From: a virus
Virus record (IMG/VR): IMGVR_UViG_3300045988_000419
Location: 1 to 5,621 of that record
Reading direction: 5' to 3' (one strand)
DNA length: 5,621 bases
Each line of letters starts with the position of its first letter. Position 1 is the first letter of the stretch. The notes under the pieces were generated by a model. That model had not been told where the DNA came from and searched no databases. It saw only the letters and a program-made list of their open reading frames with translations. The position numbers and the translations under genes were made by a program. Below, one piece after another: positions 1 through 5,621 of the stretch.

Positions 1-141
1 GATGATAATGCGGCCTTCCTGTTTGCTCTCCGTACTCTCCTGCGCAGAAATAGCGTAAGCCCGGCTCTGAGGCCCTTCTAAGGCGTTTTATGAACTTCTG
101 CACATCCTCATACCATAGCGTTTGATTTGTCTTTAAATCGC
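1..141. repeat. Terminal redundancy copy 1 (identical to 5481-5621); marks circular genome closure
   Basis: Base-by-base reading shows gatgataatgcggccttcctg...ctttaaatcgc at both ends. Confidence 0.97.
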
Positions 142-490
142 CCTTTCTGCCGCTGTATACGCCACCTCTGAAAACTTCACCGGTTTCGTGGTTGATGCAT
201 GGCACATGAGTGTCATCATAAGTTAGCGTAAGAAAATATACACTATTTGGTATAGATGTTTTTGCTTCCATTTCAATTCTTGCCGCCCAGTCTTGCCGTT
301 TCCGGATTCTACATCCGATGCATTGCCCGCACGGTACTAGCATAACGTCTTTTCGATAGATAAGGTCTTCGTATGTCAAGTTCGGATTATGTGCTCTTTC
401 AAGCGCAAAGCGCCTGAGCGTGTATACATGCCCAGACGCTTCACGGTCTTCTGGCACATAAAACCGGATTAACGGTTTATAACATGCCAT
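1..490 (-). CDS. VP4: Replication initiation protein VP4 (HUH rolling-circle endonuclease), N-terminal part. The ORF runs off the window start and continues at 5480 because the genome is circular. The full gene is 490..1 joined to 5480..4954, 338 aa.
   Basis: Manual translation from ATG 490..488 gives MACYKPLIRFYVPEDREASGHVYTLRRFALERAHNPNLTYEDLIYRKDVMLVPCGQCIGCRIRKRQDWAARIEMEAKTSIPNSVYFLTLTYDDTHVPC... with no stop down to base 1. It is in frame with the 4954..5583 ORF (490-103=387, divisible by 3). It carries a CGQCIGC Cys cluster, RCR motif I FLTLTY (about 218-235) and an HYH motif at 2-10. An AGGAG SD lies at 503..499, 8 nt upstream of the ATG. Confidence 0.93.
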   Translation of the reverse strand, partial: MACYKPLIRFYVPEDREASGHVYTLRRFALERAHNPNLTYEDLIYRKDVMLVPCGQCIGCRIRKRQDWAARIEMEAKTSIPNSVYFLTLTYDDTHVPCINHETGEVFRGGVYSGRKGDLKTNQTLWYEDVQKFIKRLRRASEPGLRYFCAGEYGEQTGRPHYH

Positions 491-493
491 TGC

Positions 494-1351
494 TTATTCT
501 CCTGTATCTCCGTTCAGATCCTGTCGTCTTTTCGCCTTTTCCTGAAGAGTTTTGCTTACTTTGCCTGCGCTGGTTTTCGCCACATCGGTGACTTTGTCTT
601 CGATGTTTTTTTCGGCCTCTGCTTTCTGTTCCTGGTCTTCTTCGGTTTTGTTGATAATCGTTCCCACGTCTTTGGCCAGTTGCTGAAAGCTGTACCCGCT
701 GTTAAATCCTTGCTGGTAATAGTCACTGACTGCGCTTGCAATGTTGTGGCTCGCATTTGCGCTGAGCTGGAAATTGCTACTTAGTGCACTTCCTCCTAGT
801 GCGCTTGTGCTTCCCAGTCCCATACTTGCCGCTCCGATTGTGCCCGCACCGCCTCCCGGTGTGCTTGCGCCTCCGTTCATTGCCGCCAAGATTGGGTTGA
901 TTCCTGCGGCCCTCATGTCTTTCACGGCTCTTTGGTAGGCTGTACTGCTCATGTGCTCTTGCCAATCGCGGTTTGCTTGAGCTTCTGCGGAGTTGTAGGC
1001 CATTGCCTCCTGCATCATTTTGCGGTTAAATTTGCCTTGATAATTCATCATGTTTCGGTTTAGCATGTATTGCAGTCCGCTTGAACCCAAGTTTCCGAGT
1101 CTCTGTAAAACCATGCTTCCGAGGTTTACGACGTCGTTACTTCCTCCGATGCTTCCGCCGATTCCCCAGCCTTCGCTTCCGCTTTCGCTGTGCCCTCCGC
1201 CCTGCGTGTATCCATTGTTGCCGCTTGTCGTTAAGGTTGTGTTGCCGCTTGTGTCATAGTATAGCTGCTCGTTTTGTTTTCGGTTTTGCCAAGAGTTCCA
1301 CAGATTGACACCTGCGTTTATGAGGCTTGGCACTACGCTCCAAAAACCCAT
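494..1351 (-). CDS. VP2: Minor capsid / DNA pilot protein VP2 (285 aa)
   Basis: It sits directly downstream of VP1, the typical gokushovirus position. It has a Gly/Ser-rich low-complexity core, an N-terminus MGFWSVVPSLINAG, and a conserved-looking STAYQRAVKDMRAAGINPILA segment typical of gokushovirus VP2. Its TAA stop (494-496) is 3 nt before the VP4 ATG. Confidence 0.88.
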   Translation of the reverse strand: MGFWSVVPSLINAGVNLWNSWQNRKQNEQLYYDTSGNTTLTTSGNNGYTQGGGHSESGSEGWGIGGSIGGSNDVVNLGSMVLQRLGNLGSSGLQYMLNRNMMNYQGKFNRKMMQEAMAYNSAEAQANRDWQEHMSSTAYQRAVKDMRAAGINPILAAMNGGASTPGGGAGTIGAASMGLGSTSALGGSALSSNFQLSANASHNIASAVSDYYQQGFNSGYSFQQLAKDVGTIINKTEEDQEQKAEAEKNIEDKVTDVAKTSAGKVSKTLQEKAKRRQDLNGDTGE

Positions 1352-1393: not shown

Positions 1394-3046
1394 TTAGTGA
1401 TGATCTACCAGACCCGGGACGCTATAGAGCGGCATCGGCCGGACAGTTGTGTTTTTCACGAGGATGTCCATGATGAACTGTGGTTCGTCCTGAATTGCGA
1501 GAGTACGTTGAATTTCAGCTTTGCCCTCTTTCATCCACTCCTGAGAGAGCACAGGCACTGAGCTGTATTCGTCGGCATAGTGCCAAGAGTCCAGTGTGCC
1601 GTTTGCGTTGCTTCTGAAGAGGCCACAGACGCGGTTCGGTTTCATCCTGTATTCGCTCCATGCTTCCTGATAGCCGAAGGCCTCTTCGTCGGATGCTTCC
1701 GCTGTTGCGTAAAGCTCCTTTTTCAGTACTGCCTGCTCGCCCAAGTTTGCGAATACCGGGAAGTAGAAATCCAGCTTGTTTTTCCGACTCCACATCCGCT
1801 CGATGCCCTGTTGATATGTGTGGTCGTGTCGCACGCAGCACACACCGATGACCCAGCCGTGTTCTTCGAAGGACTTCGTAAAAGAACTTTTGCCAAATCC
1901 GGTTACGGACACTGCCGCTACGTTGCCCTGCGGGCTTTCCGTGGTCGTGCCGCTCGTCTGCACAACTTGGTTAATGTTGATCATGACCCGGTCGCCGCCC
2001 AGATACTCCGGAATCTGTGCTGTTTTATCGCTGATGCGCGTCCGGAATAGACTGTAAATTTGCTCACGATACCGAGAGCCGCCCCGTGCCAGCTCTTCGA
2101 AGTACTTTTGCACCTGAAAAGCTTTTCTCAGTTCGTTGATGCTTGTTGCGTTGACTTTCGAAAGGTCCGCGCCTAGGTAGGCTTGTTTATCACCCGTGGC
2201 GAAGATCGCTCTATTGTCGGGCATGCCGAGTATGCCCGCTGTGCCGGTCCGTTCGATTGTTCCGTTGTATATTGCGTAAAGCGATGAGTCCCATTCGGTT
2301 TTTACGTTGGCGTTTTTGTAACCTTTAATGGGCGCGTTACCGCTCAATGGAATTCTAACCGGGTCTCCCGCTCTCTGAGGCGAAGGGAGACTGCTGGAGA
2401 AGTAGTCGTGAAAGCGGTTGACAGGAAGAGGACGACCGCCCGTATATGCTTGCTGGAGAATCTTTTCGATGTTGTCCCCTGCGTCGTCCTTGTAGTCCAC
2501 AGTTGCGTCTGTCACACTGTTGATTGCCGGATTGTCCACGTTCTGGTCTCTGAACCACTCATTCCAGATTTTCACATACGCACGAATTGGCAGTGCGTTG
2601 ATTTCTGTTTTCTTCCCTGCGCCGACAAATTTGGTCGGAATGCCCATATAGTCGAGGATGCTGGCTTCTTTCGGCAGTTTGTCGGTGTCGCTTGTACCCG
2701 TGATTTTGATAGTCGGAACAGTGTACTCGACTGCCTGCACCCACGGCTCATCGGTGACTTCGCCCATGAATTCCTTCCAATGCTCCCACAGAATACGGTT
2801 CGGAACAAAGAAATAATAGTAATCCAAGTATGCGTTGTCCATTACCGGAAAAATCGGTGTGGTCATACGAATAATTGCACTCTGGTCTACAGAGAAGGTA
2901 TCGCCGGGCAAGACTTCATCCACATAAAAAGGAATGAGCTTGCCAGCGTCGAATGTTAACTTAATATCTTGGTCGCGCTTGAAACGGCTTCGCGTGATTT
3001 CCAGTGCTGGCACTTGGTTAAAGTGCGCCTCATTGTTGCGTTTCAT
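1394..3046 (-). CDS. VP1: Major capsid protein VP1 (phiX174 F-like jelly-roll, 550 aa)
   Basis: It carries hallmark gokushovirus VP1 motifs: HFNQVPALEITRSRF, GKLIPFYVDEVLPGDTF, PVMDNAYLDYYYFFVPNRILWEHWKEFMGE, INELRKAFQVQKYFEELARGGSRY and IPEYLGG. A GGAGG SD lies 7 nt upstream of the ATG (3046..3044). Confidence 0.97.
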   Translation of the reverse strand: MKRNNEAHFNQVPALEITRSRFKRDQDIKLTFDAGKLIPFYVDEVLPGDTFSVDQSAIIRMTTPIFPVMDNAYLDYYYFFVPNRILWEHWKEFMGEVTDEPWVQAVEYTVPTIKITGTSDTDKLPKEASILDYMGIPTKFVGAGKKTEINALPIRAYVKIWNEWFRDQNVDNPAINSVTDATVDYKDDAGDNIEKILQQAYTGGRPLPVNRFHDYFSSSLPSPQRAGDPVRIPLSGNAPIKGYKNANVKTEWDSSLYAIYNGTIERTGTAGILGMPDNRAIFATGDKQAYLGADLSKVNATSINELRKAFQVQKYFEELARGGSRYREQIYSLFRTRISDKTAQIPEYLGGDRVMININQVVQTSGTTTESPQGNVAAVSVTGFGKSSFTKSFEEHGWVIGVCCVRHDHTYQQGIERMWSRKNKLDFYFPVFANLGEQAVLKKELYATAEASDEEAFGYQEAWSEYRMKPNRVCGLFRSNANGTLDSWHYADEYSSVPVLSQEWMKEGKAEIQRTLAIQDEPQFIMDILVKNTTVRPMPLYSVPGLVDHH

Positions 3047-4221: not shown

Positions 4222-4347
4222 TCAGCTCATGTTGTTGGCGTTCTCGTTCTTATCTTCCAGCATGTGATAAATTTTATCAAGGACTGCGAGGATTTCGCGC
4301 AGTTTGCTAAAGATAGCGTTGACTTCTTTAAAGGTCGTTGTTATCAT
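4222..4347 (-). CDS. Hypothetical 41-aa protein MITTTFKEVNAIFSKLREILAVLDKIYHMLEDKNENANNMS (speculative first cistron)
   Basis: Hand-translated. The ATG at 4347..4345 is preceded by GAGGGGG, and the predicted transcription start is only about 8 nt upstream. The TGA stop (4224..4222) overlaps the SD of the next gene. The sequence looks like an amphipathic helix. Confidence 0.38.
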   Translation of the reverse strand: MITTTFKEVNAIFSKLREILAVLDKIYHMLEDKNENANNMS

Positions 4348-4361
4348 CCCCCTCGTAACCC

Positions 4362-4390
4362 ATTATACTACTGCCGCCGTTTTTTTTCAA
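4362..4390 (-). promoter_or_regulatory. Sigma70/SigA-type promoter for the whole minus-strand operon
   Basis: The minus strand reads TTGAAA (4390..4385), then a 17-nt spacer AAAAACGGCGGCAGTAG, then TATAAT (4367..4362). This places the start about 7 nt downstream (near 4355), just ahead of the first SD and ATG. Confidence 0.6.
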
Positions 4391-4440
4391 CCGCGCAGAA
4401 TAGCCAAGGTTGCGCAAGCAATTTTGGGCGTTCTGCGCGG
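4391..4440. promoter_or_regulatory. 10-bp perfect inverted repeat abutting the -35 box (candidate operator or cruciform)
   Basis: ccgcgcagaa (4391-4400) and ttctgcgcgg (4431-4440) are exact reverse complements separated by 30 nt. The spacer contains the palindrome ttgcgcaa (4410-4417) and a ccaa/ttgg pairing. Confidence 0.7.
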
Positions 4441-4468
4441 TTTGCCCGCTGCAGGCGAAACTTTGAGT

Positions 4469-4495
4469 TTTCAACACTTTCAACACTTTCAACAG
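4469..4495. repeat. Tandem 9-bp iterons: TTTCAACAC, TTTCAACAC, TTTCAACAG
   Basis: Three head-to-tail units occupy 4469-4477, 4478-4486 and 4487-4495. Confidence 0.9.
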
Positions 4496-4510
4496 GTTTT
4501 CCACAAAATG

Positions 4511-4532
4511 TTGCACAAAGGATTTTGTGCAA
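4511..4532. other. 9-bp hairpin between the two iteron clusters
   Basis: ttgcacaaa (4511-4519) pairs with tttgtgcaa (4524-4532), with a 4-nt loop ggat. A mutually exclusive 8-bp pairing is possible between cacaaaat (4502-4509) and attttgtg (4522-4529). Confidence 0.75.
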
Positions 4533-4543
4533 ATTGCTATATT

Positions 4544-4581
4544 CTCAACAATTCAACAATCTTTCAACAAAGTTTTCAACC
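4544..4581. repeat. Second cluster of the same motif: CTCAACA, TTCAACA, TTCAACA, TTCAACC at 8-12 bp spacing
   Basis: Copies lie at 4544-4550, 4552-4558, 4563-4569 and 4575-4581, all in the same orientation as the 4469-4495 array. Further copies lie at 4629-4635 and at the -35 box (4386-4392). Confidence 0.85.
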
Positions 4582-4694
4582 TTCTTTTGTGCGCTTTTTT
4601 TACGATGATATGTAAGAAAATGGCACTATTCAACATTTCCACACTCTCTACTACTACGGCTACAACAAATAAAATATAATAATAACTGCGAATT

Positions 4695-4753
4695 CGTATA
4701 CGCACGCGCGTGCGCGCGCGCGTTTCGCGTGCGTGCATGTGTGTGTGTATGCG
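4695..4753. repeat. Two perfect 28-nt alternating pyrimidine-purine tracts (CG/CA/TG/TA dinucleotides) separated by TTT; Z-DNA-prone low complexity
   Basis: 4695-4722 is cgtatacgcacgcgcgtgcgcgcgcgcg and 4726-4753 is cgcgtgcgtgcatgtgtgtgtgtatgcg. Every position alternates Y-R. The region contains a 14-bp perfect palindrome, cgcacgcgcgtgcg (4701-4714), and a 9-bp stem between 4700-4708 and 4726-4734. Confidence 0.9.
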
Positions 4754-4783
4754 AATACCTATGTGTGAGCAAAGCGAACGCAC

Positions 4784-4802
4784 CAACGCCGTATAGGCGT
4801 TG
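4784..4802. other. Small 7-bp hairpin
   Basis: caacgcc (4784-4790) pairs with ggcgttg (4796-4802), with loop gtata. Confidence 0.6.
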
Positions 4803-4814
4803 TGGTATGGAGGT

Positions 4815-4847
4815 TCGGGGGGTAGCGGCAGAACGCTCACCCCCCGA
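4815..4847. other. GC-rich hairpin (G-run / C-run stem)
   Basis: tcggggggt (4815-4823) pairs with accccccga (4839-4847). After a 1-nt bulge (c4838), agcg (4824-4827) pairs with cgct (4834-4837). The loop is gcagaa. There is no flanking U-tract on either strand. Confidence 0.75.
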
Positions 4848-4865
4848 TAATATTCTTGGTAATAG

Positions 4866-4894
4866 AAAACCCCATGTTTCTAACATGGAGTTTT
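4866..4894 (-). terminator. Rho-independent (bidirectional-looking) terminator ending the operon
   Basis: The minus-strand RNA reads AAAACUCCAUGUU-AGA-AACAUGGGGUUUU followed by CUAUU. This gives a 13-bp stem (one G-U) with a 3-nt loop and a U-tract. It lies about 60 nt downstream of the VP4 stop. Confidence 0.6.
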
Positions 4895-4904
4895 GTTGTA
4901 AATC

Positions 4905-4952
4905 TGTCAACGGGCCAAGTTGCAGCCTTGTTAGTAACTTGGCCCGTTGACA
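4905..4952 (-). other. 17-bp perfect hairpin starting 2 nt after the VP4 stop (candidate terminator, origin or priming structure)
   Basis: 4905-4921 (tgtcaacgggccaagtt) is the exact reverse complement of 4936-4952, with a 14-nt loop gcagccttgttagt. The mRNA-sense strand carries CAACTTG (4922..4916) at the loop-stem junction. Confidence 0.7.
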
Positions 4953-4953
4953 C

Positions 4954-5621
4954 TTAAATTTTTCCGGATGCTTTCCGGTGCTTCTTGATTCGGTCTTCTT
5001 GTCCCTTTAGATACTCTTCAATACTAACGTTAGTACGTCCATATTTATCCTTACAGGCGTCTATTGCTTTAGCTTGTCGCGCCTCTTTTAAGGCCCAAAC
5101 TCTGCGTATGTCCTTTTCTTCCATCTGCTTTTCAAAATACCGTGGTATTTGTGCTCTCCGGCCCCCCGAGAGTTGCACATAGCCTTGCGTCCAGATTTCT
5201 TCTTCGTGTTCAAGATAGTATTGCTGACCTATACCCGGGTGTAAGCTCATCCTGCAAAATGGTGGTTGTAAGCCGTTGCGGATGTGAGCTTGTGTTTCCT
5301 CGTCCACCTTTTTTGTGACGTATCCTGCCACATAGCTGAAGGTTGTAAAGTCGTTTGTACAGGCTAAATTGTGTATCCCATATGTCCATAGTTTTGTGAT
5401 ACGCTCGTCTGTGTAGTATCCTTCTTTGCTGAGAAGTCGGTACGGCTTGAGTTTCTCCGGAAAATAGTTAAAAAGTATAAGATGATAATGCGGCCTTCCT
5501 GTTTGCTCTCCGTACTCTCCTGCGCAGAAATAGCGTAAGCCCGGCTCTGAGGCCCTTCTAAGGCGTTTTATGAACTTCTGCACATCCTCATACCATAGCG
5601 TTTGATTTGTCTTTAAATCGC
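4954..5621 (-). CDS. VP4: Replication initiation protein VP4, C-terminal part. The same gene as 1..490, and 5481-5621 duplicates 1-141.
   Basis: The ORF-track entry 4954..5583 begins at an internal GTG, which is an artefact of linearisation. It contains HUH motif II (RPHYHLILFN) and motif III YVAGYVTKK (5308-5334), with two Tyr spaced Y-x-x-x-Y as in the phiX174 gene A protein. The stop is TAA at 4954-4956. Confidence 0.93.
   Translation of the reverse strand, partial: DLKTNQTLWYEDVQKFIKRLRRASEPGLRYFCAGEYGEQTGRPHYHLILFNYFPEKLKPYRLLSKEGYYTDERITKLWTYGIHNLACTNDFTTFSYVAGYVTKKVDEETQAHIRNGLQPPFCRMSLHPGIGQQYYLEHEEEIWTQGYVQLSGGRRAQIPRYFEKQMEEKDIRRVWALKEARQAKAIDACKDKYGRTNVSIEEYLKGQEDRIKKHRKASGKI
5481..5621. 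repeat. Terminal redundancy copy 2 (identical to 1-141)
   Basis: Same as copy 1. The unit length is 5,480 nt. Confidence 0.97.

Follow-up and report, generated by a model that had tools for sequence, protein, structure and literature searches.

A conserved two-box hairpin next to rep, a probable replication origin inverted with respect to the genes in a clade of gut gokushoviruses

The genome analyzed in this work raises the question of what role is played by a perfect hairpin lying immediately beyond the rep stop codon, and of the strand on which it might act. The window, that is, the whole stretch of 5,621 nucleotides (IMG/VR record IMGVR_UViG_3300045988_000419, assigned in IMG/VR to the class of direct terminal repeats), represents a complete circular genome of 5480 nt, since bases 1-141 recur at 5481-5621. 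Every long open reading frame is carried by the minus strand, namely, those coding for Rep/VP4, VP2, VP1 (PF02305), VP3 (PF09675), and VP5 (PF20577), and the genome is that of a gokushovirus-type microvirus, the closest matches in GenBank being Microviridae from pig and human faeces (about 72% nucleotide identity across 60% of the genome). The hairpin is contained in the non-coding block 4349-4953, and the adjacent rep gene, whose stop codon TAA occupies 4954-4956, crosses the circle junction:

490..1 joined to 5480..4954, minus strand: rep/VP4, 338 aa, Pfam PF23343
4954..5480, minus strand: 3' part of rep/VP4, with the HUH motif and the two-tyrosine motif SYVAGYVTKK

The residues HYH (161-163) and YVAGY (213-217) of this Rep are found as in phiX174 protein A, with which the HUH block aligns (E = 3e-5), and the two-tyrosine catalytic motif reads YVAGYVTKK in the window and YVAKYVNKK in phiX174.

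A preliminary description of this locus had reported a perfect 17-bp hairpin, and this is indeed the case, the arms 4905-4921 and 4936-4952 being 100% complementary with 14 nt between them; it had also placed a gap of 2 nt between the hairpin and the VP4 stop, where just one base (4953) is present. Folded as single-stranded DNA, the coding strand reaches -20.2 kcal/mol (z = -7.0, with none of 200 shuffles as good) and the plus strand -21.1 kcal/mol (z = -10.3), two added pairs giving a longer stem on the latter. The features of the hairpin are the following:

4905..4952, plus strand: putative origin hairpin, with a perfect 17-bp stem, or 19 bp and a 10-nt loop when folded on the plus strand
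4916..4922, minus strand: heptamer CAACTTG, a chance by-product of the stem sequence
4927..4933, plus strand: loop core CTTGTTA, homologous to the CTTGATA of relatives and phiX174 and aligned with the CTTGATA/CTTGTCA of relatives
4948..4953, plus strand: TGACAC box, 14 nt after the core; on the coding strand it reads GTGTCA, directly after the rep stop

The preliminary description had connected the hairpin to the phiX174 origin through the heptamer CAACTTG. This heptamer does occur on the minus strand, at the junction between the loop and the 3' arm, but it does so at chance level; two copies are found in the window against 0.88 expected, and two or more appear in 45 of 200 shuffles. Moreover, among 91 distinct hairpins of the family, the window's is the only one to carry CAACTTG on the mRNA-sense strand, and at the same position relatives have GTACTGGG, CTACTTGG, GTACTTGG, and others. 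On the basis of its chance frequency and of its absence from the 90 other hairpins, we rejected this reading of the heptamer. The related genomes, to which the description had looked for conservation, retain the hairpin through compensatory changes and have lost CAACTTG, a combination that it had itself named as arguing against a nick site marked by the heptamer. What survives of the proposal is the broad idea of a rolling-circle nick site on a hairpin adjacent to rep, together with its kinship to the phiX174 origin, which is borne out by a different sequence on the opposite strand.

Indeed, the conserved part of the locus is a two-box element on the window's plus strand, antisense to all genes, formed by a hairpin whose loop contains CTTG(A/T)(T/C)A and by a TGACAC box 13-14 nt downstream. 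The loop of the family, CTATCAAGTA, reads TACTTGATAG when reverse-complemented and includes the nick core CTTG|ATA of phiX174 and pC194. The layout of the relatives is CTTGATA, 13-14 nt, TGACACC, the spacing being fixed among the relatives compared. Both the core CTTGTTA and the box TGACACT of the window deviate from this consensus; in its subclade a changed core, CTTGT(T/C)A, is found, the nearest relatives having CTTGTCA or CTTGTTA, and CTTGTTA is also found in SpV4 and in L140/L141.

Searching with BLAST for 4780-5000 against phage records returned chance matches only, and an exact scan for the 3' arm returned no match; yet the hairpin lies 1-12 nt past the rep stop in every relative found by genome or Rep similarity, which implies that the element is conserved as a motif and a structure rather than as a long sequence. 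A fixed-register motif derived from the relatives matched at least 117 viral contigs, all of them microvirus-sized, with a single match per contig located in non-coding DNA. Of 129 distinct instances, 118 have the start of the motif 0-25 nt beyond the stop codon of a Rep homologue (38-71% identical to the window's Rep), the remaining 11 being near contig ends. Since matches selected by motif are biased, a second sample of 80 loci was chosen by Rep alone, 74 of which had enough downstream sequence. The element was present within 100 nt after the rep stop in all 74 (Rep identity 47-70%); 70 fit the strict motif, TGACAC box included, one has an insertion ahead of the motif, and three exhibit compensatory stem changes (GTCCAGT/ACTGGAC, CCTAGT/ACTAGG, and GGCCAGT/ACTGGCC). 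The TGACAC box belonged to the search patterns, so that its presence in motif-selected matches is by construction; independent support for it comes from the finding that GTGTCA(C) after the rep stop is kept in all the relatives found by BLAST or Rep, even where it is unpaired.

The element extends beyond the close relatives of the window. The outgroup Dulem virus 195, whose Rep is 34% identical, harbors a 19-bp hairpin upstream of rep, on the coding strand, with CTTGATA at the loop followed by GACACC. Likewise, strand-blind pattern scans revealed, in many distant microviruses, a hairpin with (T)CTTGATA(T/G) and, at a fixed distance of 13-14 nt, TGACACC. These scans relied on a fixed-spacing pattern, which replaced a looser one, TCTTGATA-N6-30-TGACACC, discarded because its matches were mostly chance occurrences in large phages (a microvirus capsid was found in 7 of 117). 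No two-box element was detectable in the whole genomes of Chp2 (L209) and phiMH2K (L211). In SpV4 (L210, NC_003438), positions 511-549 of the plus strand form a hairpin GGGGCATAT/ATATGCCCC with TACTTGTTA in its loop and TTGACGAC after it, accompanied by a TTGAC box; this is a candidate origin, with a weak match to the covariance model described below (20.7 bits, E = 0.05).

Some observations concern the surroundings of the boxes. In several relatives (L033, L104, L116, and L008) the TGACAC box is repeated just 3' of the element and on its strand, as happens often, either in direct orientation (TGACACC-A-TGACAC) or inverted, the copy then lying 4-8 nt off (TGACAC-CAAA-GTGTCA), an arrangement resembling iterons or dimer-binding sites; the window has a single copy. 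In L036, the rep stop and the hairpin are separated by an insertion at about 2925-3012, in which a unit of about 24 nt (GGTTAGCCTGACTAACTGGGCACC) occurs three times in tandem. On the element strand of most of the clade, the core TACTTGATAG is immediately followed by a 3' arm beginning with TACTTGG, so that TACTTG forms a direct repeat there (not in the window); as the 5' arm CCAAGTA might pair with one or the other of the two copies, more than one hairpin could form.

In the family, covariation is seen in the stem, the loop and the 5' flank being fixed. In a structural alignment of 73 sequences spanning the clades, all 11 stem pairs change on both sides, a count that is favoured by the fitting of this alignment to the covariance model. 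Pairing cells amount to 88.3% against 57.2% in shuffles (none of 500 reached the observed value), and the covariation score is 0.72 against 0.21 in shuffles and at most 0.18 in slid controls. The pair M14:K, whose 3' partner lay outside the search pattern, is C:G in 50 sequences of the family and A:T in 41, with no mismatch. The covariance model itself (R1, built from 29 sequences) assigns 44.9 bits to the plus strand of the window (E ~1e-6, span 4899-4955) and 16.5 bits to the minus strand (E 0.34), the latter match being just an echo of the palindrome. The model also recovers a copy in L206 on which it had not been trained, and it scores the two-box hairpin of other gokushovirus-type microviruses at 33-58 bits. 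Wobble versus A.C counts in the interior of the stem favour the antisense strand in three cases and the sense strand in one, and these are too few to decide.

The orientation of the element with respect to the genes sets the window apart. A strand-blind fixed-spacing pattern located the element on the coding strand in all 71 other capsid-encoding microvirus contigs, and the coding strand also carries it in SpV4 and phiX174. In the clade of the window, which includes the records of Gokushovirus WZ-2015a and "Human gut gokushovirus", it is antisense to the genes in 159 genomes. The phylogenetic tree of the capsid groups the antisense genomes into one clade (SH-aLRT 93, and 99 for its core), which also embeds six truncated loci lacking the region, the long-branch outlier L349, and the divergent L207, whose own divergent copy of the element lies on the antisense strand. 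Its sister clade, which is well supported, consists of 19 rows, all "sense". The inversion of the two-box element is particular to the clade of the window, and the simplest history would have the module inverted just once with respect to the genes. Across the 159 genomes, the element strand has 158 occurrences of CTTGATA followed by GAC at 12-16 nt, and the coding strand has 3. A depletion of CTTGATA alone on the coding strand was dropped as evidence, being explained by T-poor codon usage and in-frame TGA. We also observed a second CTTGATA on the element strand of the window (1036-1042, plus), inside VP2 and devoid of a TGACAC box; VP2 contributes about one such copy per genome throughout the clade (319 copies of CTTGATA in 159 genomes), which probably reflects a conserved Y-Q-G codon triplet.

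Base composition differs sharply between the two sister clades. At four-fold sites, T is 0.54 and A 0.06 in the sense clade, where T exceeds A in 19 of 19 genomes, whereas in the antisense clade T is 0.14 and A 0.40, and T exceeds A in 1 of 159. However, T exceeds A in just 14 of the 39 deeper "sense" lineages, and skew was therefore set aside as a general marker of polarity, being informative only between the two sister clades. The coding strand of phiMH2K is A-rich and G-poor at these sites (A 0.46, G 0.06), and Chp2 and SpV4 have T at 0.51-0.65. As to folding, the genome-wide mean energy favours the coding strand in both groups, an asymmetry that we discarded as probably an effect of purine-richness.

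Two further hairpins of the non-coding block bear on the functions that might be attributed to the one studied here:

4692..4756, plus strand: CG/TG hairpin of 31 bp, a candidate for the complementary-strand origin, which shares its strand with the nick core
4866..4894, minus strand: second hairpin followed by a T-run, 13 bp with one U.G pair, likely the intrinsic terminator of the operon

The former, made of alternating CG/TG, depends on G.T pairs and folds on the plus strand only (-29.2 kcal/mol, z = -5.3, against -17.8 kcal/mol, z = -0.3, on the minus strand); a scan of 18 window-type genomes placed the most strand-specific hairpin of every one of them 64-250 nt away from the element, on the element's own strand. 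The latter folds better on the coding strand (-9.5 kcal/mol) than on the plus strand (-7.9 kcal/mol), and in close relatives its stem is cleaner and is followed by TTTTTTATTA. The preliminary description had offered a transcription terminator as an alternative for the hairpin at 4905-4952; there, however, the coding strand continues after the stem with GATTTACAAC, lacking a T-run, and the hairpin is absent from a terminator consensus scan. Since the T-run and the better coding-strand fold belong to 4866-4894, the role of terminator falls to this second hairpin, and the hairpin next to rep should consequently be transcribed as part of a 3'-UTR. At 4815-4847 the window also has a hairpin of a G-run and a C-run, equally stable on both strands (-14.5 and -14.4 kcal/mol) and without a T-run; relatives such as L016 carry G6/C6 hairpins in the same region.

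Different explanations, other than that of an origin acting on the plus strand, have to be weighed against these data. If Rep nicked the mRNA-sense (minus) strand at CAACTTG, at the junction between loop and stem, in the way phiX174 is cut at CAACTTG|ATA, the virus would conform to the known microviruses, whose coding strand is the viral strand, and the heptamer is there at 4916-4922; nonetheless, it is followed by GCC and not by ATA, none of the 90 other distinct hairpins of the family shares a sequence that occurs at the frequency of chance, and the covariance model places the element on the plus strand (44.9 versus 16.5 bits), all of which makes a cut at this point extremely improbable. We also deem it quite improbable that the hairpin is primarily an RNA element of the rep 3'-UTR, acting as an intrinsic terminator, in the stabilisation of the mRNA, or in its processing. 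It begins 1 nt past the stop codon and upstream of the terminator, and it is hence transcribed, and in relatives of the L008 type the stem is followed by ATTTTATT; against this, the window has GATTTACAAC in place of a T-run and a separate terminator hairpin downstream, it is the loop and the unpaired box that are conserved in sequence while the stem varies, and an RNA function would leave unexplained why in other clades the homologous element is placed upstream of rep or at other sites and has the opposite orientation with respect to transcription.

The remaining two explanations keep a role in replication or in Rep binding and are unlikely to a lesser degree. A complementary-strand origin, at which primase, the primosome, or RNA polymerase would gain access to the packaged strand and which Rep would not nick, would account for a stable hairpin of single-stranded DNA with a conserved loop, and hairpin loops containing CTA or CTG presumably resemble the start triplets of primases. 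However, the match of both boxes, spacing included, is to the viral-strand origin of phiX174, and the nearby strand-specific CG/TG hairpin of 31 bp is a better candidate for this function, so that we regard such an assignment as unlikely. Somewhat less so, although still doubtful, is the possibility that Rep binds the hairpin for autoregulation or packaging, the true nick being elsewhere on the coding strand of an ordinary positive-sense virus. The known polarity of microviruses speaks for it, as does the mixed skew of the deeper lineages, which indicates that skew can have other causes. The coding strand, however, offers no second two-box site (3 versus 158 matches in the 159 genomes) and only the palindromic echo to the covariance model, and an inverted origin deprived of its function would not be expected to remain conserved and covarying in at least 159 genomes.

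The reading that we favour is that of an origin recognized by Rep, which is likely; that it also acts on the plus strand, the two parts taken together, we would put at a probability of roughly 0.6. According to this model, the hairpin would be the viral-strand rolling-circle origin, the local copy of an element of the gokushovirus type. Rep/VP4, which like phiX174 protein A is an HUH endonuclease of the two-tyrosine type, would bind both box and stem and would cut after CTTG, that is, on the plus strand between G4930 and T4931. It would then stay covalently bound to the 5' end, and the 3'-OH would prime displacement synthesis. It is from homology that we infer the cutting by Rep at the hairpin, the exact position of the cut, and the identity of the packaged strand. 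As the strand cut by Rep is also the one displaced and packaged, the inversion of the origin predicts virion DNA complementary to the mRNAs. Three observations bear on this prediction, namely, the strand-specific CG/TG hairpin on the strand of the element, the flip in four-fold-site composition between the sister clades, and the lack of a rival two-box site on the coding strand; the mixed skew of the deeper lineages and the mean folding energy, favouring the coding strand in both groups, weaken the case for an antisense polarity. To our knowledge, all the microviruses whose polarity has been measured package the coding-sense strand, and we consider evenly balanced the proposition that in a large gut gokushovirus clade, of at least 159 genomes, the antisense strand is the one that is nicked, displaced, and packaged. 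An additional role of the transcribed hairpin at the RNA level is possible.

Among the ssDNA phages of the gut, gokushoviruses belong to the most abundant. In the literature searched, no gokushovirus replication origin is mapped or named, and the openly available full texts, including PMC7062461 and PMC3394797, contain no description of a gokushovirus origin element or of an opposite polarity. A defined two-box hairpin represents a concrete substrate for nicking assays with Rep/VP4 and for the building of replicons. If the antisense strand were packaged, the Microviridae would gain in these viruses their first negative-sense members, and strand-specific virome data would have to be read differently for a major gut clade; the places in which to search for complementary-strand origins and for the mutational biases of ssDNA would change as well, and the polarity of Microviridae would appear able to flip via the inversion of a module of about 50 nt.

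The comparison with known systems places the element closest to the origins of its own group. Other gokushovirus-type microviruses have the same hairpin, its loop containing (T)CTTGATA(T) and TGACACC following at a distance of 13 nt, and the clade of the window differs from them in that the element is inverted and lies directly after the rep stop. The viral-strand origin of phiX174 and the Bullavirinae spans 30 nt, and the gene A protein cuts it between G4305 and A4306. The phiX174 record reads CAACTTGATA-TTAATAACACTATA-GACCACC, with the origin annotated at 4306 (the G|A of CTTG|ATA), so that CTTGATA is followed after 14 nt by GACCACC, and MAFFT aligns this origin in register with the phage elements. 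Most of the clade matches the phiX174 decamer at 8 of 10 positions (ACTTGATA), and the CTTGTTA of the window is altered at a single position, the base just past the cut. The two systems share a CTTG core followed by a GAC-containing box, in the same order and at the same spacing, as well as an initiator with HUH and YVAxYVxKK; they differ in the spacer, which is here the 3' arm of a covarying hairpin and is AT-rich in phiX174, and in the location, here intergenic and on the antisense strand, in phiX174 inside gene A and on the coding strand. The enterobacterial gokushovirus prophages carry a dif-like XerCD site of 28 bp, with two 11-bp arms and a 6-bp spacer resembling the dif of the host (PMC7062461). 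A reading of our hairpin as a dif/XerCD site was set aside by eye, since an 11-6-11 layout does not fit a stem of 12-19 bp with a conserved loop.

The double-strand origins of the rolling-circle plasmids pC194 and pUB110 have the nick core CTTG|ATA and a Rep of the same superfamily, and they differ by their plasmid context; we know of no TGACAC box in these plasmid origins. The nonanucleotide origins of geminiviruses and circoviruses and the gene II origin of f1/M13 likewise present a nick motif in a hairpin loop and repeated binding boxes beside the stem, whereas the nick sequence and the class of Rep are different here (two-tyrosine, phiX-type). Geminiviruses also provide a precedent for a rep gene encoded opposite to the packaged strand, the arrangement predicted here for the clade of the window.
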